Of a stretch of DNA of 64,000 nt, positions 3,899 to 53,509 are shown in pieces (the first letter of the stretch is position 1; every line of letters begins with the position of its first letter). The translations under genes and the position numbers were made by a program. The stretch is taken from assembly GCA_951812955.1 (NCBI GenBank), contig OX638340.1:2656001-2720000 (forward strand), in the 5' to 3' direction. The notes beneath the pieces are model-generated. The model worked only from the letters and a program-made list of their open reading frames with translations. It had not been told where the DNA came from and did no database searches. The DNA comes from an uncultured Gemmatimonadota bacterium. GTDB lineage: Bacteria > JAAXHH01.

Positions 3899-4203
3899 TG
3901 TGTGGACTCCCTTTACCGATAAGGTCCTTCAGAGCCTTCGTTCCGGTTCCAGTTCTTTTCACATAACATAACGCTGACATCAAGTATACATTATGCATCT
4001 CAAAGTGGGTATCAATACCGAACACTCAGGTCCTGCAACAGCGTGTTATTTCCGATGGCGCGTGCCGTTGCCATCCGTTGCCATTGGTACGCTGTAAGAT
4101 GTCGCTTTAAGTTGCCGTAGTAGGACCGCAATAGGTATGCATACGCGCCTCATGTCCATTCTCCGCATACGGATCCAGAAAGCCCTGCCAGCAAGGTCCT
4201 GAG

Positions 4204-6567
4204 ATGCTCAAAAGCTACCTGACCATAGCGATCCGGAATATGACGAGGCAGAAGGGATATACGGCGATCAACGTGCTCGGACTGGCCGTGGGCATGGTCT
4301 GCGCCATTTTGATCTTCTTTTACGTCGATTTCGAGCTCAGTTATGACCGGTATCATGAGAACGCCGGCCGTATCTACCGGGTCGCGGTCAACAACGACGC
4401 CCGGACGCCTCCAGCCCTGGCGCCCGCACTGCAGCAAGATTTCCCGGAAATCACGCGTTCTGTTCGCCTGCTGCCGACAACCGGTGTGTGGATCATGAAC
4501 CACGCGGAGAACATATATTACGAAAACCGGGTTTACTGGGCGGACAACGCGCTGTTCGACATTCTTGATTTTCCCTTGATCCAGGGAGATTCCCGGTCTG
4601 CGCTCGTTGCGCCTTTATCCGTGGTAATCAGCGAAGATACGGCCCAAAAGTACTTCGGAGAAACGGATCCGATGGGCAAGACGATTATCGCCGATAACGG
4701 TTTCCTGGTACTGACCGTTACGGGCGTCATGGAAAACACGCCGGCGAATACACACCTTCAGGCAGACTTCATCATTTCCCTTTCCACGGCATACCAGGAT
4801 GACCTGAAATACTGGTCGTGGATCAATTTCTACACCTACATCCTGTTGTCCGAGGGCCAGTCACCAGAGGCTACCGAGAGGAAACTGCCCGATTTCGTGA
4901 ACCGGCACATCGGGGAACGCGAGGGCCGTTTCGATCTCTTTCTGCAGCCGGTCACCGACATTCATCTCCATTCCAATCTCGAGCATGAACCCGGCGCGAA
5001 CAGCGATATCACCTACGTTTACATCCTGTCGGCCATCGCCGTCTTCATCCTGGTCGTCGCCTGCATCAATTTCATCAACCTGTCTACCGCACGGTTTGCC
5101 GTCCGCGCTCGAGAAGTGGGACTGCGCAAAGTGCTGGGAGCCCACCGAATCCAGCTGATACGTCAGTTTCTGGGAGAATCGGTCCTGGTAACCGCCGCCG
5201 CGCTGATCATCGCCCTGGTGGTCCTTTTGCTGATCTCCCCGTATATCGACGGCTTTGCAGGGAAACCGGTAACCGCGGCATTCACGGGACATCTCCCCTG
5301 GCTGCTCGCACTGCCGGTGGTTGCGCTGGTCATCGGGTTGTTATCCGGCAGCTATCCCGCTTTCCTTCTTTCTGCCATGCAACCGATACAGGGCGTGAAG
5401 GGAGGCCGCCGGCTCGATTCGGCCGGGGCCATGTCGAGGAAGATTCTGGTTGTTATCCAGTTCTCGATATCCATCGCGTTGATCATCAGCACGGGGATTT
5501 TGTTCAGTCAGATGGAATACCTCCGCAACAAGCGTCTGGGCTTCGATCAGAACCAGGTGATCGTGATACCCACGTTTAACGATGTCCTGGATGACTTTCA
5601 ACCCTGGAAAGAAGCCTTGCTGCAACATGCAGGCGTGATCGGGGTGACCCAAAGCAGGTCGCTGCCAGGACTGGCCGGCAACATCGGCCAGGTTGAGACC
5701 GTCACGATACAGCGTGTCGATGACCCCGGCAATACCAGGCACGACGCGCAGGGACTGAACGTCGGTCTGGATTTCGTGGAGACCCTGGGCATGGAACTGA
5801 TTGCAGGGCGGTCTCATGATGGTGCGTTTGCCAGGGAAGCGGAGAGACTGAACATCGTAATCAACGAAACGGCGCTCCGCGCGCTGGGCTGGGAAACCCC
5901 GGAGGCGGCCATCGACCAGCAGGTACGGTTCGGCAACGACGCGACGCGGACTGTTATCGGAGTGATCGGGGATTTCCATTTTCGATCGTTGCATCTGAAG
6001 ATCGAACCGCTCGTGTTGTTTCTGGGCGGCGGTTCCCACATGGCGGTCAAGCTCCAGCCCGGGGTCGTGGAAGATACGCTGGATATGATTGAAAGCCAGT
6101 GGTCGCGGTTCTTTCCGGATTTCCCCTTCGCTTATACGTTTCTCGACGAGAACATCGATCGGCTGTACAGGTCTGAAGTCGCTACCAGTTACGTGATCGG
6201 CATATTCGCCATGGTGGCTGTTTTCCTTGCCTGTCTCGGACTGTTCGCGTTGGTTTCGTTCACGGTGGAGCTGCGAACCAGGGAGATCGGCATTCGGAAA
6301 TCGCTCGGTGCTTCCGTCCATCGGATGCTGGCCCTGCTTTCCAGCGAGTTCATCGGCCTCGTGCTCCTCGCCAATTTCTTCGCCTGGCCGGCTTCGTGGC
6401 TGGTCATGCAGCGGTGGCTCGAGTCTTTCGCTTACCGCACGGAGGTCGGATTGGGCGTCTTCTTTCTTGCGTGCGGTCTGGCCCTGCTGATCACGCTGAT
6501 CACCATCGCCTTTCATGTGACCCGTACCGCCCTGACCAATCCGGCGGAGGTGTTGCGAAACGAGTGA
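4204..6567 (+). CDS. ABC transporter permease, MacB/FtsX-type, 787 aa; paralog 2 of 4
   Basis: MLKSYLTIAIRNMTRQKGYTAINVLGLAVGMVCAILIFFYV... and a C-terminal ...TALTNPAEVLRNE. Collinear with the other three paralogs over its full length. Confidence 0.85.
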   Translation: MLKSYLTIAIRNMTRQKGYTAINVLGLAVGMVCAILIFFYVDFELSYDRYHENAGRIYRVAVNNDARTPPALAPALQQDFPEITRSVRLLPTTGVWIMNHAENIYYENRVYWADNALFDILDFPLIQGDSRSALVAPLSVVISEDTAQKYFGETDPMGKTIIADNGFLVLTVTGVMENTPANTHLQADFIISLSTAYQDDLKYWSWINFYTYILLSEGQSPEATERKLPDFVNRHIGEREGRFDLFLQPVTDIHLHSNLEHEPGANSDITYVYILSAIAVFILVVACINFINLSTARFAVRAREVGLRKVLGAHRIQLIRQFLGESVLVTAAALIIALVVLLLISPYIDGFAGKPVTAAFTGHLPWLLALPVVALVIGLLSGSYPAFLLSAMQPIQGVKGGRRLDSAGAMSRKILVVIQFSISIALIISTGILFSQMEYLRNKRLGFDQNQVIVIPTFNDVLDDFQPWKEALLQHAGVIGVTQSRSLPGLAGNIGQVETVTIQRVDDPGNTRHDAQGLNVGLDFVETLGMELIAGRSHDGAFAREAERLNIVINETALRALGWETPEAAIDQQVRFGNDATRTVIGVIGDFHFRSLHLKIEPLVLFLGGGSHMAVKLQPGVVEDTLDMIESQWSRFFPDFPFAYTFLDENIDRLYRSEVATSYVIGIFAMVAVFLACLGLFALVSFTVELRTREIGIRKSLGASVHRMLALLSSEFIGLVLLANFFAWPASWLVMQRWLESFAYRTEVGLGVFFLACGLALLITLITIAFHVTRTALTNPAEVLRNE

Positions 6568-15365: not shown

Positions 15366-15578
15366 TCAGCGGTCAATCTGATGGTCGTCGGAAATCCGGA
15401 GATGTCCTTCGTCCCTACCCAGGTGGGTATTCCTATCGTGCATTTCGATTCGAACCTCGGAGAACTTTACGTTCATTTCAGTTCGTAACTCTTCAATATC
15501 GTCTCGCAGGGAGGCGATGTCCTTCCGGATAGCAATGGTAGAACGCCCCATGAAGGTCAGGATCGCCACGACCAGCAC
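15366..15578 (-). CDS. Small hypothetical protein (repeat copy A): hydrophobic N-terminus plus charged coiled-coil-like C-terminus (...[32 protein letters not shown]...)
   Basis: ORF with a GTG start, immediately upstream of NHase alpha. Its 3' half is 100% identical over 67 bp to a second copy at ~17000-17170. The coding status is uncertain. Confidence 0.3.
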
Positions 15579-15600
15579 ACCACGGCTGTGATCCCCTGCA
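15380..15600. repeat. Direct repeat copy A (~220 bp) containing the 67-bp core ccctacccaggtgggtattcctatcgtgcatttcgattcgaacctcggagaactttacgttcatttc
   Basis: Identical 67-mer found at 15408-15474 and again at ~17005-17071. The flanks are ~75% similar, with 1-nt indels. Confidence 0.85.
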
Positions 15601-15683
15601 TTTACTAACCTGTGTTTTCCGTATTTAAAAGCATTATATCATGTTTTTGACTTTATGATGGAGACTTCGGAAAGTATTCCCTT

Positions 15684-16781
15684 TTACGCCTCGGTTAAAC
15701 TCAAATCCGTGATTGCTGCAATAAATCTCTCGGACACTGCTCGTGCGAGTCTGTTTTCTCGGTCATTTTCCGGATTCAAAGAAGCTACCATAAGTACAGC
15801 CTGGATAAAATAACGTAGCATGGCGAGACGGTAGTCTTTCCAGCAATCATCCAAGGTGTATCCTCTGACTCCATTGGCCTTCAGGGTTTCATGGTAGAAT
15901 TTAAGGAGTTGGCGTTCTTCGGCTTGTCGTTTTGGTGTGGTTTTTAAACATCCACCGATATACCATGCGATATCCGAAACGCCCTCTCCGCACGATACGT
16001 CCTGCCAGTCGATCACGGCGAAGCCCGGCTCTCCAAGAGAAGCACCAAAAAACACGTTCTCCAAACGAAAATCTCCGTGAACCATGGTTCTCGGCGGTTT
16101 ACCCAATTGGGATTCATTTTTTAACTTCTCGGGTAATTGTTTTCCAAATGTCTTGACTGCATCCGTCATCAAGTCTTCAGTTTTATCGGCAAAGACTGGA
16201 AAAGCTTCTTTATACTGATCAAGGATCCAATTCGAAACAGCGTCAGAATCCTTCGGCGAATTCGCCAGCCAATCAAACGCTTCGAGTCTTTTGTTTTCCC
16301 ACCAATAGGCGTGAAACCTGGCTATTTCGTGGAGAGCATGTGCCGTCTCTTTCATTGTACTTCCACTGATTTGATCTCCAACTTTCGCGGGAGCAAGGTC
16401 TTCAAGAATCCTGATGTACTTTCCATGAGTAACACTCATCGCACTGAAATAACAGAGGGGTGTGCGAAGGGGTATCTCGCTGGCAATTTGCTGATAAAAC
16501 AAAATCTCGCACTTATCTGGTGTAGGTAGACGCGTTTTTGCTCGTAGAGGCTCATCTGGTGCATGTAGTTTGGCAATCAGCTTTTTGGGCAGTTCTGATT
16601 GAGGTTGATTAAAGCCAAGGTGCAAGCGTGCTAACTGTCCGTCACAAGTCAATTCTGCAATCGGCTCGATACGAAGCGAGGCTATACCGACATTCGAAAA
16701 CGTATTTGTTGAAACTAGTGCTGCGGTGAGCCAATGAGATGTTATATCCAGAGGTGTATTGGGAATACTCAAAAGAGTCAT
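15684..16781 (-). CDS. Phosphotransferase-family protein (APH/choline-kinase/EcKL-like kinase fold), 365 aa, lower GC
   Basis: Brenner motif MVHGDFRLENVFF (HxDxxxxN) and FAVIDWQD (DxD-like). HAYWWE is shared with the paralog at 56166-57263. AT-richer than the surroundings. Confidence 0.75.
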   Translation of the reverse strand: MTLLSIPNTPLDITSHWLTAALVSTNTFSNVGIASLRIEPIAELTCDGQLARLHLGFNQPQSELPKKLIAKLHAPDEPLRAKTRLPTPDKCEILFYQQIASEIPLRTPLCYFSAMSVTHGKYIRILEDLAPAKVGDQISGSTMKETAHALHEIARFHAYWWENKRLEAFDWLANSPKDSDAVSNWILDQYKEAFPVFADKTEDLMTDAVKTFGKQLPEKLKNESQLGKPPRTMVHGDFRLENVFFGASLGEPGFAVIDWQDVSCGEGVSDIAWYIGGCLKTTPKRQAEERQLLKFYHETLKANGVRGYTLDDCWKDYRLAMLRYFIQAVLMVASLNPENDRENRLARAVSERFIAAITDLSLTEA

Positions 16782-16939
16782 CAGAATTCCAGCCGCCTAG
16801 ATGTAGCCGAATAACGAGCACGCTTACTACATCAGTGTTCGAGAGGAATAACCAGTAATGAGTTACAGGTTTATGATATGGCGGTGCCAATTACACAGAA
16901 CTACAGACTCAAACAACGGCGCTGAGATCACCGTTCGCC

Positions 16940-17200
16940 CTTACTGTGGTCGTTGGAATTCGTAGATCTCCTTCGACCGTACCCAGGCGGTTATTCACCC
17001 TACCCAGGTGGGTATTCCTATCGTGCATTTCGATTCGAACCTCGGAGAACTTTACGTTCATTTCTGTCCGTAGCCCTTGAAATCGTCCCTCAAAGTCCCG
17101 ATGTCTTCCCTCAGAGCGTTTGTCGAACGCCCCAGGAAGGTGGGGATCGCCACGACCAGCACGCCGACAGCAGTGATTCCTTGTATGAATATGCCGAGTG
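16940..17200. repeat. Direct repeat copy B (~260 bp) with the same 67-bp core and an internal 21-bp tandem duplication (ccctacccaggcggttattca / ccctacccaggtgggtattcc)
   Basis: Read directly from the sequence. The minus-strand reading frame is shifted relative to copy A by single-nucleotide indels. Confidence 0.85.
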
Positions 17201-17311
17201 ATTCCATGACCAGGATGTGTGGATGAGAGTTTAGGAATTATGACACACTAACTATATCAGTGTGAGAAGTCCTGGAAATCTTGGTGGTTTTTTAATTTTT
17301 AAAAAAGGACC

Positions 17312-21925: not shown

Positions 21926-22501
21926 ATGGAGAAACTGAACAGGGAACAGGTGCTGGCCAGGGCGGCGGACACGGGCGACCTCAACGGCGTTGACCTGGGT
22001 GGCCTGGATCTGTCGGAGGCCATTCTGCCCCGTGTCGATTTCAGGGACGCCAACCTGGAGGGAACGAATTTCCGGGAGGCGGATCTGACCGAGGCGGAAT
22101 TCCGCGACGCGAAGATGAGCGGCGCCGATTTTTCGGGCGCGAAGTTGGAAAGAGCGGTGCTGATCGGCGCCAGTATCGAGGGAGCGCGATTCGACGGCGC
22201 CCACATGGTCGGCGCCTTTCTCAACGGTACGGCCGCGTCGGGCGCAAGTTTCAGGAAAGCGGACCTGCGTGCGGCCCGAATCGGCGTACCCAGGTTCCAG
22301 TCAGACGATCCCTTCGCCGCGGTCACGAGCTTCGAAGGCGCGGATATGACCTGGAGTCTATTCGGCGAGGCGGACCTGACGGGGGTGGACCTCAGGAACG
22401 CGAACCTTTCCCACGCCCACATGTACGAGACGGAGATGCGCAGCGCCTTGCTGGACGGAGCGATCCTGACCGGCGTCCGGTTGAAGCGGCAGACAGTCTA
22501 G
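21926..22501 (+). CDS. Pentapeptide-repeat protein
   Basis: Consecutive A(D/N)LxG/A(D/N)FxG pentapeptides (ANLEGTNFREADLTEAEFRDAKMSGADFSGAKLERAVLIGASIEGARFDGA...). Confidence 0.8.
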   Translation: MEKLNREQVLARAADTGDLNGVDLGGLDLSEAILPRVDFRDANLEGTNFREADLTEAEFRDAKMSGADFSGAKLERAVLIGASIEGARFDGAHMVGAFLNGTAASGASFRKADLRAARIGVPRFQSDDPFAAVTSFEGADMTWSLFGEADLTGVDLRNANLSHAHMYETEMRSALLDGAILTGVRLKRQTV

Positions 22502-22577
22502 CCTGGACTGCCGGGCATGACCCGTTTACTCGACCAGGCGGCCAATCTGACCGTTCACTCGACCAGGTACGACCCGT

Positions 22578-23441
22578 TCACCCGACCAGGCGGCGCAGGT
22601 ATTCGCAGTACGCGTTGTCTTCCACATAATTTCCGATCTTCAGCACCTGGTCCCGGTCGATGTACCCCTTCCGGTAGGCGATTTCTTCGACGCAGCCGAT
22701 CTTCAAGCCCTGCCGGTGTTCGACGGCCTGGACGAAATTGCTCGCCTCCAGCAGGCTTTCCGGCGTGCCGGTATCCATCCAGACGATCCCTTCGTCGAAC
22801 CGCTCCACCTTCAGCTTGCCCCGCTGGAGATAGATGTTATTCACATCGGTGATCTCGAGTTCTCCGCGGCCCGATGGCCGCAGCGTTTTTGCAATGAATA
22901 CGACTTCGTTGTCGTAGAAGTAGAGCCCCGTGACGGCGTAGTTGGATCGTGGATTGCGGGGTTTCTCTTCAATGCCGACGACGCGCTCGTGCTCGTCGAA
23001 TTCGACCACGCCGTACCGTTCGGGCTCCTTGACGTAGCAGGCGAAGACCAGTCCTCCGTCTTCGTGCTGCGCGGCCTTTTCGACGATCTCGGTCAGGTTG
23101 CTGCCGTAGAAGAAGTTGTCTCCGAAGATCAGTGCACATGATTCATCGCCGATAAACGATTCCCCTATCAGAAAAGCCTGTGCCACCCCCGCGGGCGCGG
23201 GTTGTATGGCATATTCGAAGTGCATCCCGAGGGCGCTGCCGTCGCCGAAGAGCCTGCGGTACAGGTCGATGTGATCGGGAGAGGAAATGATCAGGATTTC
23301 CCGAATCCCCGCCATCAAGAGGACCGACAGCGGATAGTAGATCATCGGCTTGTCGAAGATGGGGATGATCTGCTTCGATATGGCCTGGGTCTGCGGGTAT
23401 AGACGCAATCCGTGCCCACCCGCGAGTATGATGCCCTTCAT
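22578..23441 (-). CDS. rfbA: Glucose-1-phosphate thymidylyltransferase
   Basis: MKGIILAGGHGLRLYPQT...KQIIPIFDKPMIYYPLS...GDNFFYG is a near-canonical RmlA. The track ORF extends upstream, but the ATG at 23441 (MKGIILAGG) is the conserved start. Confidence 0.85.
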   Translation of the reverse strand: MKGIILAGGHGLRLYPQTQAISKQIIPIFDKPMIYYPLSVLLMAGIREILIISSPDHIDLYRRLFGDGSALGMHFEYAIQPAPAGVAQAFLIGESFIGDESCALIFGDNFFYGSNLTEIVEKAAQHEDGGLVFACYVKEPERYGVVEFDEHERVVGIEEKPRNPRSNYAVTGLYFYDNEVVFIAKTLRPSGRGELEITDVNNIYLQRGKLKVERFDEGIVWMDTGTPESLLEASNFVQAVEHRQGLKIGCVEEIAYRKGYIDRDQVLKIGNYVEDNAYCEYLRRLVG

Positions 23442-23761
23442 TTGTGGTCTCCGGTTGTCGTAGGGGCGACTAGCACTAGAGGATCCTGTTTTAGGTGTCA
23501 TACACGCTTTCACAAGTTGAATTGCAAAAGATGGACAAGCGAAGAATCGCTGGACTGAGCACATCAGCAAAAAACGCGAAGTTGAATCCGGCAAGCCGAT
23601 TCTTTTTACGAGGCTACAAATCTGTTTTCGACTAAGTTTGTAGTCAAAGTAAACGCTTCATGCCGTAAAAAACACATGTCATTTTTTAAAATTAGAAACA
23701 ATCGCAATCGAAACTGGAGATAAACCACCCCTCATCGAACTCAAAAGCAAAGAAGCGACAT

Positions 23762-24650
23762 ATGGCTGATGACTCTACCACGACTGCTATACCACCAAAA
23801 CAACCGGATACGAGTAGTTCGATTGCAATTAAGTGGCTTCATTCCAAGCTTGTGGAGATTGAAGACCATACATGCATGGATGCGTTAACGATATTTGGTC
23901 CCATAACGGAAACAGTAGATCATCGAGTCAGGTTGGCGATCGAGAGTTTACCGAATCACCGCAACGGCTTGTTGGTCATTATCGATACACCCGGTGGAAT
24001 TGTAGAGGTAGCCGAACGTATTGTAACCACTATCAGGCATTACTACAAAGAGGTCAAGTTTCTCATACCTGATAAAGCGATGTCAGCAGGTACGGTTCTG
24101 GTGATGTCTGGAGATGCGATATTGATGGATCACTTTTCTTGTTTAGGCCCAGTTGATCCACAGTTGTATATCGAAGGCAAACCAATCCCGACGTCTGTCC
24201 TTTCTTATCTTGAACAATATGAACGATTTGTTCAAAAATCCATGGAAGGTACCTTGACGAGTGCTGATTTGGTTCTGCTTCAAAAGCTTGACGCTGCTGA
24301 CTTACGACAGTACGAACTGGCGGCCGAGTTATCTGTGCGCCCGTGATTGGCTTGTTCGGTATAAATTCAAGGATTGGTCCAAGCACAGTTCCACAGGGAA
24401 CACGGTTTCAAAAGAGGAAAAAACAATCCGTGCCGAAGAAGTTGCGAGAGCGCTTAATGATCAGGAAAGATGGGGTACCCATGGAAGGGGAATAAACCGA
24501 GAAGTTCTTGTCAAATTAAAGCTCAAGATTGATAATTTGGAATCCGATACTGAATTAAGTAGTCTAACAAAAGAGTATTTCTGGTTTTTTAGAGACTTAG
24601 CATTCAAAGAGGAGTCGCAAAGTCTTGTACACAACCGGTTATTCATCTGA
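23762..24650 (+). pseudogene. SDH/S49-type Clp-fold serine protease, disrupted by a -1 frameshift near 24325-24335 (N-terminal part 23762-24346; C-terminal part continues in the +1 frame to 24650); low-GC island 1
   Basis: The N-terminal frame has IIDTPGGIVEVAERIVTTIR...AMSAGTVLVMSGDAILMDHFSCLGPVDPQ (oxyanion and Ser nucleophile context of ClpP/SppA-class proteases). The second frame (SYLCARDWLVRYKFKDW...GTHGRGINREVL) aligns to the C-terminus of the intact paralog at 35429-36433 (VKSWLESYMFKGM...KSHSRHIPREEL). Confidence 0.55.
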
Positions 24651-24660
24651 GAGGAATATC

Positions 24661-24882
24661 ATGAAAACAAATGACAAACTTGTCCTCACTAAGGAACAAC
24701 TGGTTGAGAACCCCGCTGTCAATCCCGGGATTGTAAAAGAAGCGCTGAAAATGCGCCTTGAACTGGAGCGTTTAGGAGTATGGGATAACAGTGGGACACG
24801 TGTGGTATCGCCTTCCGAAATCAGGCCAGCTAAGAATCCCATCGGGAATATCAGACGTCGGTCTATTTCTCAAATCCGGTAA
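24661..24882 (+). CDS. Small hypothetical protein (74 aa), companion of the SDH-type protease; has a PGIVKE motif
   Basis: MKTNDKLVLTKEQLVENPAVNPGIVKEALKMRLELERLGVW... starts 11 nt after the protease stop. GAGGAA RBS. Homologous to the small ORF upstream of the second protease copy. Confidence 0.4.
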   Translation: MKTNDKLVLTKEQLVENPAVNPGIVKEALKMRLELERLGVWDNSGTRVVSPSEIRPAKNPIGNIRRRSISQIR

Positions 24883-25015
24883 TCCTAGCCTGCAGCCGTA
24901 TTATCCTCAGGTATTAAGTCCTTGTTCCGGATTCAATACCCATACTGAATGGTTTGATTAGGCAGTAGCGAAGAAAACGAGCCCGCCCGTTCCTCACCCG
25001 CTCTTCACCCGCTCT

Positions 25016-26065
25016 TCATCCACTCCTCACCCACTCCAGATCGAACCGGACCAACTTGATCGTCTCGTAGGGATGATCTTCTCCCCGTTCATAGAGGCAG
25101 GCGACGGTACCGTCTGGAAGCACGGCGAGGGATGAATAGGCGGACGGCCCGGGATGCAGCACCTTTTCACGTGGCCAGGATCCGCCGGCTTCATCGGAAA
25201 GTCTCACGGTCAGGTTACACCGCTCGTCCCGGCTGGCCGGATTCGAGAACAGCAGGCGGTCGCCCGCGCCGGGATACCGGACGAGGGCCGCCTGGCAGAT
25301 CGGTTCGATCAGCGTTTCGTCGTGGCGCTGGTTACGCCACGTCATCCCGCCGTCTCCGCTGACGGCGAACTGCCTGGTGCGCAAGGCCCGGTCGTAATTT
25401 CGCATGTTGAGCAGGACGTCGCCGTTTTCCAGCTCGGTGACGCAGCATTCGTTGACCTGGTCTTGCAAAGTCGTGCCGCCCATCCGCCAGGTTTCCCCAT
25501 GGTCTTCGCTGTATATGACATGAGAATAGTAGCGTTTGGTGCTTGCCTCTATGTGGTCGCAGGGTATCAGCATCCGGCCCGACGATAGCTGAATTCCGTT
25601 GCCCGGTCCGGTGGCGTACCACGTCCAGTCCGCGCGCTTCGCGGTGGAGGTGATATCCCGCGGTTCGCGCCACGTGCGGCCGTCGTCTTCGCTGGCCGTG
25701 ACCCAGACGGTCCGTGAGCCCTGGCTCGTCCCCTCGATGATCTCGGATTCGCGGTCGATCCCCATGTTGTGGGTCATGAGCAGCCATACTTTCCCGGTCT
25801 CGCCGTCTACCACCGGACAGGGATTGCCGCAGGTATTCCCTGCGTCCGCCCAGACCAGCTCCTGGTCCGACCAGGTGCGCCCGCCGTCTTCGCTCCGCTT
25901 CACCAGCATGTCGATATCGCCGGTGTCGCTTCGGCTGCTCCTCCGGCCTTCGCAGAAGGCGAGGACCGTACCCCGGGTTGTCGCGATGATCGCTGGAATG
26001 CGGTAGGTATCGTAACCTTCCGTGCCGCTGGTCCAGATATCGGATTGTTTACAGGAGCCGCTCAT
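25016..26065 (-). CDS. Exo-alpha-sialidase (GH33, BNR/Asp-box repeat)
   Basis: YRIPAI (sialidase RIP motif) plus four Asp-boxes: SEDGGRTW, SEDDGRTW, SEDHGETW and SGDGGMTW. Confidence 0.85.
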   Translation of the reverse strand: MSGSCKQSDIWTSGTEGYDTYRIPAIIATTRGTVLAFCEGRRSSRSDTGDIDMLVKRSEDGGRTWSDQELVWADAGNTCGNPCPVVDGETGKVWLLMTHNMGIDRESEIIEGTSQGSRTVWVTASEDDGRTWREPRDITSTAKRADWTWYATGPGNGIQLSSGRMLIPCDHIEASTKRYYSHVIYSEDHGETWRMGGTTLQDQVNECCVTELENGDVLLNMRNYDRALRTRQFAVSGDGGMTWRNQRHDETLIEPICQAALVRYPGAGDRLLFSNPASRDERCNLTVRLSDEAGGSWPREKVLHPGPSAYSSLAVLPDGTVACLYERGEDHPYETIKLVRFDLEWVRSG

Positions 26066-33966: not shown

Positions 33967-34199
33967 GGGATGCTCCGAAGGGAGTTTGCTTCCGCCCCTG
34001 CCGTGGTTCGTGAAGGGCGGCGAAGACGACGGGAATGTATGCACGCGGGGCCATATCGTCAATCGAATTGAAAGCAGCGCCAGCCGCGCGAAAGCAGCGC
34101 CAGCCGCGCCCGGGCCCAGTCGCGCGCGCCCGGGAAGAACATGGCTTTCCGCCGGCGGTAGTCGTTGACAGAAAGGCGGAATATCGCTAGGATAAAGCC

Positions 34200-35069
34200 A
34201 TGTTTTCGGCTGGTACGACACGGGTGCGGTTGCCTCGGACGCTGCGGATCTGCGGCAGCATATTGGTCCTCTATGGACTGGTGTTCTGCCACTTCGGATG
34301 CGGTTCGTCTGGTTCGGAGGTGGATCCGAATGACAGAGAGGCCGTGGCCCGGGCGTTCTTGGACCAGTTGATCGAGGGCACGATCACGCCCGGAACGATC
34401 GGTTTCCACGAAGTACCCGAACAGTTCGTGCAGGATGGGAAGGCGTTGTATACCCGGTACGGCTGTACCGTGTGCCACGGCATGGACGGCCACGGGGACG
34501 GGCCGGTCGCCTATACGCTGAAGCCACCACCCCGCGACTTCAGGGACCCCGGCGCCTACCGCGTCGGCCGCGACGTGGTCACGATCGCCGGCACACTGAG
34601 GGACGGCATGCCCGACAGCCCGTCCATGGTGCCCTTCCCCCATATCAAGGACGAAGAGCGCTTCAAGATCGCCATGTACGTGGCTTCGCTGCAGCCGGCG
34701 GACGACCTGGAGATCGCCGGGACCTGGGTGCGGGCCACACCGCCGAACCGCGACGTTACCGCCGCCTACCTGGTGATCAAGAACCGGTCGGACCGGACCC
34801 GGGAATTGCTGTCCGTCGAGACGCCGGCCGCTGAATACACGGAACTGCATACCATGCGGTACGTAGACGACATGATGGAGATGGAAAAGATTGAACGCCT
34901 GGTGGTTCCAGCGCAGGGCGAGGCGGCATTGAAGCCTGGCGGAAACCACATCATGTTGTTCGGTGTGAAACGACAGATGGTGGAAGGCGATTCGGTATCC
35001 CTGACTCTGCGTTTCGCCGACCAGTCGACCCGGAACATTGTGGCCGAAGTGTTGAAAAGCAAACCATAG
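34200..35069 (+). CDS. Cytochrome c (CxxCH) - PCu(A)C copper chaperone fusion lipoprotein
   Basis: Lipobox LVFCHFGCGS. CTVCHG heme-binding motif. C-terminal PCuAC motifs ...ELHTMRY...MMEME...NHIMLFG (H(M)X10MX21HXM-type). Confidence 0.7.
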   Translation: MFSAGTTRVRLPRTLRICGSILVLYGLVFCHFGCGSSGSEVDPNDREAVARAFLDQLIEGTITPGTIGFHEVPEQFVQDGKALYTRYGCTVCHGMDGHGDGPVAYTLKPPPRDFRDPGAYRVGRDVVTIAGTLRDGMPDSPSMVPFPHIKDEERFKIAMYVASLQPADDLEIAGTWVRATPPNRDVTAAYLVIKNRSDRTRELLSVETPAAEYTELHTMRYVDDMMEMEKIERLVVPAQGEAALKPGGNHIMLFGVKRQMVEGDSVSLTLRFADQSTRNIVAEVLKSKP

Positions 35070-35212
35070 TACCTACAATATGTTGTGTGTAGTAGTGGAA
35101 AAAAGTACAACATGCTTGTCTAATAGGATTTATTTGGGATTTCACACCACAAACAACTATCTTATAGATACTTCCTCAATTCCGTATACCTATCCCCCTA
35201 GGGAGTATGTAC

Positions 35213-35404
35213 ATGCCTCGATCTGAGTCCAAACGCGTACAAGAACATGAAGCCATGCTCCAAGAAGCACTATCCCGTCCTGGTGTTAAAGAGGTCATGG
35301 AGGTTTATAGAGGATGGCTAGAATCAGACCAGGGAATGACCCCATATCGTGTGGCTACTAAGGAACCTCATCGGATCACGACAACTAATTCCACTAATCA
35401 ATAA
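35213..35404 (+). CDS. Small hypothetical protein (~64 aa), companion of the SDH-type protease; has a PGVKE motif; low-GC island 2
   Basis: MPRSESKRVQEHEAMLQEALSRPGVKEVMEVYRGWLES... has an AGGGAG RBS 7 nt upstream of the ATG at 35213. Aligns with the 24661-24882 product. Confidence 0.4.
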   Translation: MPRSESKRVQEHEAMLQEALSRPGVKEVMEVYRGWLESDQGMTPYRVATKEPHRITTTNSTNQ

Positions 35405-35428
35405 ACAGTGTGACGCGGGAGCTATTCG

Positions 35429-36433
35429 TTGCCAATCTGGAGCGAAATCCTTAAAGAGTTGACACCGACACAAAATGGACTTCCAGTTGATTTTGATGGC
35501 GTTCGAAGGAAATATCTACTGAAACTCCATCAGCACACGGAACGGAATGTAATTCTGTACGCCTCAGGATGGCTTCAAGGGGAAGCCCCTCCTGCGCTTG
35601 TTTCAATAAATGATGAAGACATACAGGCGTTCATGGAAGTTAGTCACGGTCTACATGGAGATCAGCTCGATCTGATCCTACATAGCCCCGGAGGTTTTCC
35701 CGAAGCAGCCGAAGCGATCGTTGCGTATCTGAGGTCTCGATTTTCTCATATAAGAGTAATTGTTCCACAACTCGCAATGTCGGCAGCAACTATGATAGCA
35801 TGTGCTGCCGATAAGATCGTGTTAGGCAAGCATTCATTTCTCGGTCCTACTGATCCTCAGATAATGCTGGCAACCCCTCTAGGTGTGCGTTCAGTACCGG
35901 CTCAGTCTGTCCTGGATCAGTTTGATCGGGCCAAGAAGGAATGTTCCGACCCAGCCAAATTGTCGGCTTGGTTACCGATGTTAAGTCAATATGGTCCGGA
36001 TTTACTGGTTCAATGTGAGACCGCGTTAGAAATGTCTAAAGTGCTAGTGAAGTCTTGGTTGGAATCGTACATGTTTAAAGGGATGGATGATCGTAAATCA
36101 AGGGCGGAAAACGTCTCGACGTGGCTCGCTGATCACATGGAGTTCAAAAGCCACAGTCGACACATACCACGCGAAGAACTTGAAGACCACCAGTTGTCGA
36201 TATCTAGGTTGGAAGAAGATACGATATTGCAGGACATGAGCCTTTCAGTGTTTCATGCAACTACTCATACCTTTTCCGGCACCCCCGCTGTAAAGATCGT
36301 CGAGAACCATACAGGTCGTGCATTCATAAAACAAAATGTTACTCAACCGGTGCAGGTTGCCATGCAGCCAGTCCAGTCGATAGAAGTTGCACCAGTACCA
36401 CTAGTAATGCCCGAACATAGTGCCGATAGTTGA
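35429..36433 (+). CDS. SDH/S49-type Clp-fold serine protease (intact, 334 aa)
   Basis: LILHSPGGFPEAAEAIVAYLRSRF...LAMSAATMIACAADKIVLGKHSFLGPTDPQ has the ClpP/SppA-class catalytic Ser context. Low GC. Inserted between the PCuAC and SCO1 genes. Confidence 0.65.
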   Translation: MPIWSEILKELTPTQNGLPVDFDGVRRKYLLKLHQHTERNVILYASGWLQGEAPPALVSINDEDIQAFMEVSHGLHGDQLDLILHSPGGFPEAAEAIVAYLRSRFSHIRVIVPQLAMSAATMIACAADKIVLGKHSFLGPTDPQIMLATPLGVRSVPAQSVLDQFDRAKKECSDPAKLSAWLPMLSQYGPDLLVQCETALEMSKVLVKSWLESYMFKGMDDRKSRAENVSTWLADHMEFKSHSRHIPREELEDHQLSISRLEEDTILQDMSLSVFHATTHTFSGTPAVKIVENHTGRAFIKQNVTQPVQVAMQPVQSIEVAPVPLVMPEHSADS

Positions 36434-37076
36434 ACCTACCCTAGGCGGCGGGATTCCCACTCCTGTTCGACGGTACTTCTGCTATTATGTGATTTCGATC
36501 TGCGCGGCCCTGCTGCTCATTCCAGGATGCCGCACCGAATCCCCTCCTCCGTCCCAGATCGACGTCCCCGCACTCCTGGACTACGGCGAACGCTTCGGCG
36601 GCGATTTCACGCTGACCGACCAGGACGAAGCGCTATTCAACCTTTCTGAATACCGCGGCGACGCCTTCCTGATCTTCTTCGGCTACACCTTTTGCCCCGA
36701 TGCCTGCCCGCTCATGCTCTCCAAGCTGGCGGCCGTCTACGACGTGCTCGATCTCGAACCAGGCCAGCACGTACGCACGGTATACATCACCGTCGATCCA
36801 TCGCGCGACACGCCCGAGCAACTCAGAGAGTACCTGGCCTACTTCTCCACGGTGGACGTCCGCGGCCTGACGGGATCGCGGGAGGAGATCGACGAGGTCG
36901 CCGAACGGTACGGCGTGCTGTACAAACTGCAGGAGCCGAACGAGGCGGGGCACTACCTGGTGGCCCACACCACCACCCTGTTCCTGGTGGATACGGAGGG
37001 CCGCCTGCGTTTCCGGTTCCATCCAAGCGACACCCCGGAATACATCGCGGCGGGCGTGAAACTGCTCTTCGAATAG
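36420..37076 (+). CDS. SCO1/SenC-family copper chaperone (thioredoxin fold), lipoprotein
   Basis: FGYTFCPDACP (CxxxC) and HTTTLFLVD (conserved His). Lipobox LLLIPGC. The start overlaps the protease stop by 14 nt, so its exact start is uncertain. Confidence 0.8.
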   Translation: MPIVEPTLGGGIPTPVRRYFCYYVISICAALLLIPGCRTESPPPSQIDVPALLDYGERFGGDFTLTDQDEALFNLSEYRGDAFLIFFGYTFCPDACPLMLSKLAAVYDVLDLEPGQHVRTVYITVDPSRDTPEQLREYLAYFSTVDVRGLTGSREEIDEVAERYGVLYKLQEPNEAGHYLVAHTTTLFLVDTEGRLRFRFHPSDTPEYIAAGVKLLFE

Positions 37077-51274: not shown

Positions 51275-52651
51275 ATGCTGGTAATCGTCAGCGACCTGCA
51301 TTTGACGGACGGCACATCCGGCCGGACCATCAATGCGCATGCCTTTCGGTTGTTCGCCGACCGGGTTCGGGACATGGCCTTCGACGCCTCCTGGCGGCGC
51401 GGGGGTTCCTACCGGCCGGTCGAGCGCGTCGACATCCTCCTTCTGGGAGATATCCTGGACGTCATTCGCTCGACCCGGTGGCTTGAGACCGATCGCGGGA
51501 CGCGTCCCTGGAGCGACCCCGCGGACGTCCGGCTCGCCCGGAAGGTGAATGAAGTAACCGATGAGATCCTGAAGCACAATGCGCACGCGCTGTCTCATCT
51601 CGGGAACCTGGCGCGTCCCGGAGGCCTCCTGCTTTCTCCGCCCGGGGGAGCGAATGGGAACCCGAAGCATTCCGAGCCCGGCCTGCCGGTACGGATCGGC
51701 ATCCACTACATGGTCGGCAACCACGACTGGTTCTATCATTTGCCCGGCGCGGACTACCACCCTCTGAGGAGGAAGGTCTCGGACGCCCTGGGGCTGGAGA
51801 ACGACCCTGACGCGCCCTTCCCCCACGATCAGGAAGAATCGGCCCGACTCGACGGCATACTTCGTGATCACGGGGTCATCGCCCGCCATGGAGACGTCTT
51901 CGATCCCTTCAATTACTCCGGATCGAGGAACGAGCCGTCGCTGGGGGACGGCGTCGTCATAGAATTGGTGATCCGCTTCCACCGGGAGGTCCTCGCCCGC
52001 CTGGGATCACGAATGCCCCGGTCGTTCATCGACGGACTGCGGGAGATGGACAATGTCCGCCCCCTGGCAGCCGTTCCCGTCTGGATCGACGGCCTGTTAC
52101 GTAGTCACGGGGTGCCAGGAAGAGAGGCTCGCAAGGTAAAAGACACCTGGAACGACCTGGTCGACGCCTTCCTCGATCTGGATTTCATCCGGGGGCGGGA
52201 CGCTTACTTGAATCCCTTCGACAGCGTGGACCGGCTGGAATACGCGCTGAGGATCACGCGAGACATTCCGCTAGTCGCGGCGAGCGCGCTGGGCGCGTGG
52301 TGGAACGACCTGGCGAGTGGTCCAGGCGGCACGGACGAATCCTATCATGCCCACGCTGCCGGGGAAAAGGCGGTGCTGGACAGGGAGGCACGGCACGTGG
52401 TATACGGCCATACCCACCACTACGAAATCGTGCCCCTCGACGCCATGACGCGGGACGGCCGGCGATTCGAACAGGTCTACTTCAACGCGGGCACGTGGCG
52501 CAGGGTACATCGGCTCGCTCGTTCGTCCCGGCGCGGCCGGTCCTTTGTAGCCTACGACGTCATGACCTTCCTGACATTTTTCAAGGACGACGAACGCATG
52601 GGCCGCCCGTTCGCCTGCTGGTCGGGGACGCTGGGCGAGGCGCGCCGGTAG
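51275..52651 (+). CDS. Calcineurin-like metallophosphoesterase (MPP superfamily), 458 aa with long insertions
   Basis: All MPP motifs are present in order: VSDLHLTDG (DxH), LLLGDILD (GDxxD), MVGNHDW (GNHD/E), ARHGDVFD, and YGHTHHYE (GHxH). Confidence 0.75.
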   Translation: MLVIVSDLHLTDGTSGRTINAHAFRLFADRVRDMAFDASWRRGGSYRPVERVDILLLGDILDVIRSTRWLETDRGTRPWSDPADVRLARKVNEVTDEILKHNAHALSHLGNLARPGGLLLSPPGGANGNPKHSEPGLPVRIGIHYMVGNHDWFYHLPGADYHPLRRKVSDALGLENDPDAPFPHDQEESARLDGILRDHGVIARHGDVFDPFNYSGSRNEPSLGDGVVIELVIRFHREVLARLGSRMPRSFIDGLREMDNVRPLAAVPVWIDGLLRSHGVPGREARKVKDTWNDLVDAFLDLDFIRGRDAYLNPFDSVDRLEYALRITRDIPLVAASALGAWWNDLASGPGGTDESYHAHAAGEKAVLDREARHVVYGHTHHYEIVPLDAMTRDGRRFEQVYFNAGTWRRVHRLARSSRRGRSFVAYDVMTFLTFFKDDERMGRPFACWSGTLGEARR

Positions 52652-52934
52652 GACGGGATATGAGTATCAGAACCGCAATCCGAATCAAAGTCAACTGAGA
52701 TTGAACGACATAAACGAGTTACGGTCAGCAAAGAATAGTTTACCCTAACTGCTGATATTCGTACATTTTGTTGACGAGCATTTGACTCCAAGTTCTAACG
52801 ATACTTCGCATGCGATGCGTGTTTTTCAAACCAAAGATCGTGTTGGAAGTGTTATACTGAGTGAGGATACGTGTGAATTGCCGACGAGATTCCTGACAAA
52901 AACTTAATAGAATTTGGCCACAAAGGAGACTGTT

Positions 52935-53123
52935 ATGTCTGAGGATAGACATACTTCCAGAGAGCAGAACGATATAGAAATCAAGAGTGTAAACGAAGAT
53001 TCGCCAGGAATCGAGACTATGCCCGATATTACCCCGGAGATGATTTCGCCAAATCCTCCCCAAAGCAACAGTGAGAACAACCAGCACGATCAAACAGGGT
53101 CATCAAATGTAGAAAGTGACTAA
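52935..53123 (+). CDS. Small acidic, low-complexity hypothetical protein (62 aa) in an AT-rich spacer
   Basis: AAGGAG RBS 6 nt upstream of ATG. The product is Ser/Asn/Glu/Pro-rich. Weak coding evidence. Confidence 0.25.
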   Translation: MSEDRHTSREQNDIEIKSVNEDSPGIETMPDITPEMISPNPPQSNSENNQHDQTGSSNVESD

Positions 53124-53309
53124 GATGTCGAGTTCAGTTCAGGCGATATAGAGTGGGTGCAATTGCACAAGAAAAAGTAACAAATAAAACTGTATTCAAC
53201 CGCTTGATTAGAATCCTTGTTAAGACTGGCAGCAGACCCTTTTCACTTGACTTGAAAGACCTCTCGCCCTACCATGGTGCAGTTGTTTAGGGAGATATCG
53301 GGAAGGTAT

Positions 53310-53396
53310 GCCGGGGTGGTGGAATTGGTAGACACAGGAGACTTAAAATCTCCCGGACCTCAATAGTCCGTGCCGGTTCGAGTCCGGCCCTCGGCA
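53310..53396 (+). tRNA. tRNA-Leu (anticodon UAA), type II with a long variable arm
   Basis: GCCGGGGTGGTGGAATTGGTAGACACAGGAGACTTAAAATCTCC...GGTTCGAGTCCGGCCCTCGGCA. The anticodon loop cuUAAaa reads UAA. Acceptor stem has one G-U pair. No encoded CCA. Confidence 0.85.
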
Positions 53397-53435
53397 TTCG
53401 GGGTCGTGAACAAACTGGTGAATGCTGGATATGCA

Positions 53436-53509
53436 GGGCGCTTAGCTCAGATGGTTAGAGTGCCACGTTGACATCGTGGAGGTCAGTGGTTCGATCCCAC
53501 TAGCGCCCA
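53436..53509 (+). tRNA. tRNA-Val (anticodon GAC)
   Basis: GGGCGCTTAGCTCAGATGGTTAGAGTGCCACGTTGACATCGTGGAGGTCAGTGGTTCGATCCCACTAGCGCCCA. The anticodon loop ttGACat reads GAC. T-loop GGTTCGATCC. Confidence 0.85.

Follow-up and report, generated by a model that had tools for sequence, protein, structure and literature searches.

A mobile protease-partner gene pair, its protease gene apparently decayed, in an uncultured Gemmatimonadota bacterium

A growing number of immune and addiction modules are found to be built on proteases; ietAS, the gasdermin-activating proteases, Craspase and CalpL are examples. To our knowledge, none of the described systems joins a protease of the ClpP/SppA fold to a dedicated partner of 70 amino acids (aa). 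Here we describe such a gene pair in a stretch of 64,000 nucleotides (nt) from an uncultured Gemmatimonadota bacterium (contig OX638340.1, positions 2,656,001 to 2,720,000; hereafter the window). The pair occupies an AT-rich segment, island 1 (23460–25015), in which a protease gene interrupted by a small deletion is followed by an intact small gene; a second such segment, island 2, holds a related pair. Two-gene conflict modules built on a protease are already known as a kind, and this pair is uncharacterized. On balance, we favor the reading that island 1 is a pseudogenized copy of a mobile, previously uncharacterized two-gene module, similar to those of abortive infection or to toxin-antitoxin pairs.

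One precedent is ietAS, in which a serine-protease toxin is paired with an AAA ATPase antitoxin, and which also acts against phage (PMC13069673). The cassette is likewise a two-gene mobile module, with a serine protease as its presumed toxic effector. The two differ, however, in that IetS is paired with an ATPase, whereas the cassette partner is a 70-aa protein without an ATPase domain, and the cassette has no match in PADLOC. IetS is also subtilisin-like and not of the ClpP fold.

Two further precedents, NfeD (1510-N) and SppA, belong to the same protease clan as the cassette protease and have the same fold. Both are membrane-associated and use Ser-Lys chemistry, and in the NfeD operon the protease cuts stomatin, encoded beside it, in its C-terminal region. 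In contrast, the cassette protease lacks a membrane segment and keeps a conserved histidine, and its partner is unrelated to stomatin. The entry for 4KWB describes SppA crystallized with C-termini bound in its active sites. The serine dehydrogenase proteinase (SDH) family (Pfam PF01972, formerly DUF114; NCBIfam NF047768) has a ClpP-like core, the order Ser...Asp...His and a C-terminal helical domain in common with the cassette protease, and the annotation pipeline PGAP names the Escherichia coli homolog by this family. The order Ser-Asp-His sets SDH_protease apart from ClpP, in which it is Ser-His-Asp (Pfam family description). The cassette clade differs from the rest of the family by its obligatory small partner gene, and we know of no description of a small partner gene for the SDH family.

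The cassette can also be compared by genomic position. In lambdoid prophages the site between cI and N holds rexAB in lambda and bstA in BTP1; it has been described as a hotspot of mosaicism whose transcription in lysogens accompanies that of the repressor (10.1101/2020.07.13.199331). RexAB and BstA, both of them abortive-infection systems expressed from the prophage, are encoded 3′ of the repressor in the same slot and on the same strand as the E. coli pair described below. They have no sequence or domain relation to that pair: RexAB is described as a sensor plus an ion channel and BstA as a single protein, whereas the cassette encodes a protease and a small soluble partner. Finally, the closest PHROG family is phrog_11747 (function unknown), with members in Gordonia phage BeeGee, a Shewanella Mu-like phage and Porphyromonas phages. 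It is matched by the proteases of both islands (island 1, E = 3e-51; island 2, E = 1e-87 over full length), but the clade of island 1 branches off more distantly and carries the partner gene on the opposite side.

The protease gene of island 1 is broken. Its open reading frame (ORF) ends at a TGA after 194 codons and carries on in the +1 frame to 24650, the two frames overlapping at 24261–24346. Both pieces align consecutively to the intact island-2 paralog and end to end with 297-aa homologs, with identities of up to 96–98%; the N-terminal fragment is 96% identical to the intact 297-aa protein P0001. A homolog search with the two frames joined as query returned 1,967 relatives, the best of them 96% identical, and the 120 listed were mostly 280–300 aa long, typically 297 aa. 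DNA alignment showed that, relative to the sister strains L001 and L002, the window is without five bases (TCATT) between 24341 and 24342. The protease gene is uninterrupted, at 297 aa, in a reference metagenome-assembled genome of the same species (L003, 98% identity) and in a distant syntenic relative (L004), and none of the listed homologs (>100) shares the break. The surrounding sequence is neither repetitive nor slippery, and the sister strains and all listed homologs have a single frame at this point, not the conserved frame change at a slippery site that marks programmed frameshifting.

Because the 5-nt deletion is missing from the sister strains, we read the frame break as strain-specific decay and exclude programmed frameshifting. 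The sister-strain alignment also rules out a single-base error, and sequencing error as the source of the break is unlikely. An earlier model-made reading of the letters alone (the original prediction) had placed a −1 frameshift around 24325–24335 and had offered real decay, sequencing error or programmed frameshifting as its cause. The disruption proved real, but it lies about 10 nt from the predicted position and is a 5-nt deletion instead of a single-base shift; decay is the cause that survived.

The deletion also separates the predicted catalytic residues. The 194-residue product retains Ser108 (AMSAGT) and Asp132 (GPVDPQ), and W239 and H242 (ERWGTHGRG), both invariant, are encoded in the helical domain of the C-terminal third, out of frame with the serine. 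Since the catalytic Ser is thereby split from the His, the truncated protease should be inactive. The exact truncated protein has no record in a collection of 15 billion proteins; that collection does include the 73-aa small protein and the protease of island 2, which come from a single contig. We assembled 82 related loci by a family search and a genome scan, and used 79 of them for counts of neighbors and of guanine-plus-cytosine (GC) content. Four (L020, L055, L061, L082) carry protease genes that are independently disrupted or N-terminally truncated, at differing positions, and each keeps its small partner; protease decay therefore recurs in the family.

The small gene of island 1 encodes 73 aa plus a stop and begins 10 nt past the protease stop, behind a GAGAGGAA ribosome-binding site, essentially as predicted (a 74-aa gene 11 nt downstream). 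A profile built from downstream ORFs detected a same-strand homolog 3′ of the protease in 81 of the 82 loci, so that the conservation of the small ORF beside homologous proteases, on which the original prediction depended, was borne out. The partner follows the protease directly in 79 of these 81 loci; about 1 kb lies between the two genes in L005 and L053, and elsewhere their spacing varies from an overlap to a gap of ~25 nt. The insert in L005 (4888–5863) is a transposase of the IS4/5 family, and that in L053 (4855–6013) has no Pfam match. Searched against 5.8 billion proteins, the partner profile found 233 small proteins at E <= 1e-3, with E-values reaching 1e-15 to 1e-10, and no Pfam domain was found in any of the 233. 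An exhaustive HMMER scan of 1.84 billion representatives put the partner family at 173 clusters at 50% identity. The protease family is likewise large, with ~2,000 relatives in a word-limited search.

The partner gene is under purifying selection, with a ratio of nonsynonymous to synonymous substitution rates (dN/dS) of 0.14–0.25. Pairwise distances of protease and partner are correlated (r = 0.865, Mantel p = 0.001), and the partner evolves much faster, at a mean identity of 22% versus 53% for the protease. We concluded that the small gene is a genuine cognate partner, co-inherited with the protease. Its conserved features are an NPx[IV]D motif that starts a helix and then an extended GYxLxxPLG-like motif; the PG[IV]KE motif originally assigned to it does not belong here, since PGVxE is conserved only in the partner family of island 2. 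An AlphaFold2 model of low confidence (predicted local distance difference test, pLDDT, 65) has helices at 11–16 and 22–37, which would form a hairpin, and a disordered tail. No recognizable DNA-binding domain was evident in the partner. In four partner homologs (P0127, P0128, P0160, P0239) the C-terminal motif QGADYNLSHPLASKDxPTDAYH occurs twice in tandem, which suggests a role for the partner tail as a short linear motif engaging the protease.

The distribution of the pair points to movement between genomes. By blastn, L004, which is a different species, shares with the window both flanks (81–84%) and the cassette (81%); their common ancestor therefore already carried the island, which has been AT-rich ever since. 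Loci from Latescibacterota, Opitutales, Dehalococcoidia, Candidatus (Ca.) Foliamicus and Longimicrobiales share only 23762–24891, at 68–77% nucleotide identity, and this inter-phylum stretch is exactly the two coding sequences. Between L007 (Latescibacterota) and L009 (Opitutales), the protease genes differ by a synonymous divergence (dS) of 0.23 and the partner genes by one of 0.44. Such low values imply recent inter-phylum transfer, in this case of the cassette and possibly of the Hma operon too. The cassette (4001–5127) stands directly after the HmaB methylase gene in both of these loci.

The GC content of the pair was below that of its flanks in 76 of 79 loci, with a mean difference of 0.084 (Wilcoxon p = 2e-14), and the pair forms a 1-kb notch in GC even within high-GC Hma and defense operons. 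Many of the host names at these loci, including Poribacteria, Ca. Poriferisodalis, Ca. Poriferisocius, Ca. Spongiihabitans and Ca. Palauibacter, are those of sponge-associated lineages. We concluded that the cassette is a horizontally mobile, tightly linked and co-evolving two-gene unit. In structure it resembles a type II toxin-antitoxin system: the genes are adjacent, co-oriented, closely spaced and co-inherited, and they have spread horizontally.

In the 79 loci we then looked at the four ORFs closest to the pair, two on either side. At least 20 had a gene for HmaB, DUF499, type III Mod, HsdR or an Eco57I-type enzyme within this distance. Upstream neighbors included N6_N4 methylases, called type III Mod by PADLOC (8–9 loci), DUF1156/HmaB methylases (5–6), Eco57I-type enzymes (3) and a DUF499 ATPase (1). 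Type I HsdR was found upstream in 2 loci by Pfam, and in 4 loci by jackhmmer when both sides were counted. Downstream neighbors included AAA_21/AAA_15 ATPases (7), transposases (6), ResIII (3), Mrr (2) and HNH (2). The pair is thus recurrently adjacent to known defense genes in unrelated genomes, by raw counts that are partly non-independent. Hma defends against T4, and the hma operon is a hotspot for inserted defense genes (PMC11232893); Hma has also been treated as a relative of the defense system BREX that is centered on DUF499 (PMC12839542).

A homolog of the protease occurs in E. coli (WP_021518647.1; 41% identical), with a 56-aa ORF behind it, in 20 of 5,426 complete genomes; one copy of the pair is at NZ_CP037903.1, 3197295–3198368. 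The three copies examined lie in lambdoid prophages just 3′ of a cI-like repressor of the LexA family, on the same strand, and with two repressor alleles among them. In two of the three the protease gene directly follows the repressor gene, and one of these two also has an annotated N antiterminator gene downstream. In the third, the repressor and protease genes are separated by a gene for a small membrane protein, and the pair is followed by hicAB. Plasmids carry the pair as well: a Rhizobium copy adjoins a multiubiquitin/ThiF/DUF6527 operon and a Methylosinus copy adjoins a Fic gene, and in both the partner matches the family profile.

The protease itself was classified by profile searches and modeling. 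Scores for Pfam SDH_protease exceeded the gathering score of 31.3 bits in both islands (62 bits for the N-terminal fragment, E = 6e-17; 68 bits for island 2, E = 8e-19), but only the ClpP-like core was matched (profile positions 69–175 for island 1 and 93–175 for island 2, of 286). The SDH equivalog NF047768 gave 68 bits (island 1) and 77 bits (island 2) against a cut-off of 250. Thus, the predicted SDH-type Clp-fold protease was upheld by the Pfam score and by the fold matches below, whereas the S49 label was not supported by sequence: PF01343 (Peptidase_S49) gave E = 0.21, for island 2 only, and TIGR00706 gave 20 bits against 155. Similarity to NfeD1b_N was weak (E = 8e-8, below the Pfam cut-off). 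Scores for the prohead protease NF045542 were 33–41 bits against 120 (E = 7e-8), and the match to phrog_53, a head maturation protease model, was also weak (E = 5e-8).

Ser108, Asp132 and His242 are invariant, in that order, in an alignment of 22 diverse island-1 homologs, as are Ser118, Asp142 and His242 in the alignment of the island-2 family. Both subfamilies have the Ser in AMSAGT, the Asp in GPxDPQ and the His in [ST]H[GS]R. An AlphaFold model of an intact homolog (pLDDT 78; predicted template modeling score, pTM, 0.74) has a ClpP-like alpha/beta core and, C-terminal to it, a helical domain, with the His loop at a pLDDT below 50. Foldseek matched this model in the PDB to SppA, ClpP and the NfeD-type 1510-N protease (E ~1e-5, TM-score 0.38–0.5). 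Resemblance to the S49 peptidases is confined to this level of fold (E = 1e-5, TM-score 0.38–0.48). Against viral models, the best full-length matches were giant-virus proteins annotated 'serine dehydrogenase proteinase' (TM ~0.55). No solved structure of a close relative was found, the sole match being ClpP 1y7o (E = 0.001). On these profile and fold comparisons, we place the protease as a divergent branch of the broad SDH/ClpP-fold group, and as neither an S49 enzyme nor a prohead protease.

Island 2 (~35070–36433, 0.46 GC) had been described as the same pair in flipped order. Its protease is indeed a paralog, 32% identical to that of island 1, but the small partners showed no significant similarity: BLASTP found nothing, comparison of their profile hidden Markov models (HMMs) gave E > 1, and hhalign gave a probability of 5.9%. 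Homology of the two small partners was therefore rejected as a candidate; hhalign pairs NPxID with xPGVx, a register other than that of PG[IV]KE. In nearly all of ~80 metagenomic loci of the island-2 family, an ORF of 58–78 aa stops no more than a few nt from where the protease gene begins, and at least 39 of these upstream ORFs form one HMM family with the 65-aa ORF of the window. Because the partners are not detectably related, islands 1 and 2 are sister modules with analogous partners on opposite sides, and not one pair flipped.

Relatives of island 2 are found after the tail genes in Gordonia phage BeeGee, in a Shewanella Mu-like phage, next to hicAB in Porphyromonas phages, in the nin region of a Klebsiella prophage and beside an integrase on a Pseudomonas aeruginosa plasmid. 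Neighbors in this family are heterogeneous, with integrases, transposases, NERD, NOV_C and methylases among them.

Measurement of the composition of island 1 agreed with the predicted low-GC mini-island: 44.3% GC in 23460–25015, 60.7% in each 2-kb flank and 59.8% in the whole window. Third-position GC is 0.41–0.46 in the island-1 genes and 0.81–0.84 in neighboring genes; GC is 0.371 in the spacer at 23595–23761 and 0.51 in the 3′ spacer. The flanking rfbA-type and sialidase-like genes were correctly recognized in the original prediction (Table 1). L001 and L002 have the gene order of the window (FAA hydrolase, rfbA, protease, small ORF, sialidase, DUF6785), and the island is present in all close relatives (L001–L004). 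The AT-rich spacer before the protease gene is conserved only within the species: in the syntenic L004, both flanks and the cassette could be aligned with the window but the spacer could not. The cassette promoter presumably sits in this spacer. A search of the spacer found no Rfam match and no convincing sigma-70 promoter or terminator pattern, and an RNA element there was rejected on this ground. Likewise, no tRNA, integrase, or flanking direct or inverted repeat was found at either island, so an integrative element was ruled out at both; the predicted absence of an integrase held.

Table 1. Coordinates of the gene pairs and their surroundings in the window
Feature	Position	Strand	Basis or remark
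rfbA-type NTP_transferase gene	22578–23441	minus	Flank of island 1
AT-rich intergenic spacer	23442–23761		From rfbA-type gene start (23441, minus) to protease start
N-terminal fragment of putative protease pseudogene	23762–24346	plus	194 codons, premature TGA; Pfam PF01972 E = 6e-17
Site of 5-nt deletion (TCATT in sister strains)	24341–24342	plus	DNA alignment with L001, L002
C-terminal third of protease, +1 frame	24342–24650	plus	Translation and alignment
Small partner gene, 73 aa, intact	24661–24882	plus	Homolog 3′ of protease in 81/82 loci
3′ spacer, small gene to convergent sialidase-like gene	24883–25015		Inter-phylum similarity stops at ~24891 (blastn)
BNR sialidase-like gene	25016–26065	minus	Flank of island 1
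Small partner gene of island 2, 65 aa	35207–35404	plus	Upstream of its protease; PGVxEvM..Y motif, Ser/Thr-rich tail
SDH-type protease gene of island 2, 334 aa, intact	35429–36433	plus	phrog_11747 family; PF01972 E = 8e-19

Several other features of the window were recorded. Two genes upstream of island 1, beyond the rfbA-type gene, a gene at 21926–22501 encodes a 191-aa pentapeptide-repeat protein. The sequence CCGTTyACyCGACCAGG is present in three copies at 22522–22590 (within 22511–22594), running over the stop codon that ends the rfbA-type gene and a little beyond. Island 2 separates a gene for a PCuAC-cytochrome c fusion (34200–35069) from a SCO1/SenC gene (36420–37076), and the end of its protease gene (stop at 36433) runs past the predicted start of SCO1 (36420). 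PCuAC and SCO1/SenC both serve copper delivery, and their genes usually stand side by side as partners. At 34070–34109, some 90 nt 5′ of the PCuAC gene, a 20-nt sequence (GAAAGCAGCGCCAGCCGCGC) is repeated exactly in tandem, in two copies. A third low-GC patch (15400–17300, minimum 0.43) holds a minus-strand ORF of 365 aa (15684–16781) that matches EcKL, DUF1679 and APH kinase-like families and is probably another horizontally acquired gene. A further low-GC stretch (52600–53500, minimum 0.42) has no convincing ORF and lies directly 5′ of tRNA-Leu(taa) (53309–53397) and tRNA-Val(gac) (53436–53509).

How might such a module work? The first gene codes for a cytoplasmic protease of the ClpP/SppA fold with the order Ser-Asp-His and a C-terminal helical domain. 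The second, translationally coupled to it, supplies the ~70-aa cognate protein, a helical hairpin with an extended GYxLxxPLG tail. The protease would be the effector of the module, and the small partner may restrain it or offer its tail to it, as a pseudosubstrate, an inhibitor or a cleavable sensor. This model of a partner tail in the active site is drawn by analogy from the ietAS toxin, the cleavage of an operon partner by NfeD and the bound C-termini of SppA. Phage infection or loss of the partner would then free proteolysis. We place the cassette in the accessory gene pool of defense islands and prophage immunity regions. In this genome the island-1 protease should be dead, its small gene alone is intact, and island 2 holds an intact module of the sister family. 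The original prediction of a compact, horizontally acquired cassette of selfish or defense type thus stands as to mobility and as to contexts (restriction-modification, Hma, cI-N), and it is these contexts that suggest a toxin-antitoxin or abortive-infection function.

Several observations weigh against this interpretation. Most of the 79 loci, including the window, have ordinary metabolic neighbors. The counts of defense neighbors are not phylogenetically independent: all six HmaB loci belong to a single cassette clade, and Poribacteria account for all eight loci with type III Mod. The partner model is of low confidence, and the partner HMM did not match the E. coli 56-aa ORF significantly (E = 0.036 in a three-sequence database). 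Eight family members, including the proteins of the window, P0001 and the E. coli, Rhizobium, Klebsiella and BeeGee homologs, had no credible match in PADLOC-DB 2.0.0, the listed matches being at chance level (E = 0.018–0.05) and to unrelated models. A known defense system, for which the original prediction had proposed a check of defense catalogs, was rejected within the scope of that database. A full-text literature search with family names, accessions, and ClpP-like/S49 plus defense found no paper on the pair. Lastly, five loci including the window have a broken protease and an intact partner, and one locus has an intact protease and no detectable partner. Because the protease gene is four times longer, and so the larger target, this asymmetry is about what gene length predicts and is silent on which gene is the toxin; we dropped it as a guide to naming one.

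We also entertain a broader possibility, which we hold more tentatively and regard as somewhat doubtful. The pair and the sister family of island 2 may together represent a widespread, unrecognized anti-phage system, in which a self-compartmentalizing ClpP-fold protease is gated by a small pseudosubstrate. Such a system would circulate across phyla in the microbiomes of sponges and other marine settings, and would also be lysogen-expressed cargo of the rexAB slot in E. coli lambdoid prophages.

Other explanations were considered. The first is a protease and its substrate with no part in conflict: the small protein would be cleaved at its C-terminal motif, and the cleavage would serve to regulate the partner or to free a peptide (a signal, or one resembling a ribosomally synthesized and post-translationally modified peptide). 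Cleavage of stomatin by NfeD/1510-N is the precedent. The weak NfeD1b_N similarity and the fold match to the 1510-N protease agree with this, as do the leader-like helical N-terminus of the partner, its conserved and extended C-terminal motif, and the tandem duplication of that motif in some members, which recalls multi-core precursors. We nonetheless think a processing role unlikely. Only two coding sequences are common to the loci, with no transporter, modification enzyme or receptor gene traveling with them; no signal peptide is evident; and a patchy, low-GC spread between phyla, in the contexts of restriction-modification, Hma and prophage immunity, better suits conflict genes.

Less probable again is a pure addiction module, that is, a toxin-antitoxin pair that stabilizes the surrounding DNA without anti-phage activity. 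The pair is compact, translationally coupled, horizontally mobile and found on plasmids; it adjoins hicAB in an E. coli prophage and a Porphyromonas phage; the disordered-tail partner of the island-2 family lies upstream, the usual position of an antitoxin; and ietAS is a precedent for a serine-protease toxin (PMC13069673). The partner has no recognizable DNA-binding domain, however, and placement in the cI-N slot and in Hma operons is more typical of defense cargo. Addiction is also not mutually exclusive with a defense role.

A third explanation, to which we give little credence, is that the protease is functional in this genome, through a programmed ribosomal frameshift or because the break is an assembly or sequencing error. 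The overlap of the two frames would allow it, and both halves are well kept, at 96% identity to intact copies. These points are outweighed by the nature of the break, a loss of 5 nt from sequence that is not repetitive and has no slippery site, by the one uninterrupted frame of sister strains and >100 homologs at the exact break point, and by the independent disruption of four other loci at other positions. Finally, we consider it scarcely credible that the pair is a remnant of prophage head assembly (a ClpP-like prohead protease accompanied by either a scaffold or a small head protein), since the weak head-maturation matches (NF045542, phrog_53) that suggest it fall far under cut-offs (33 vs 120 bits) with phrog_11747 as the closest PHROG, phage homologs lie outside the head module (in the cI-N slot, after tail genes, beside an integrase, in the nin region), and no capsid, portal or terminase gene is near island 1.

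We therefore return to the reading of island 1 as a decayed copy of a mobile module similar to abortive-infection or toxin-antitoxin pairs. For annotation, this means that the island-1 protease gene is best labeled a pseudogene, and its island-2 counterpart an intact gene. The native prophage version in E. coli makes the defense hypothesis directly testable. With a dS of only ~0.2–0.4 between phyla, the cassette marks recent gene flow across phyla in host-associated marine communities.

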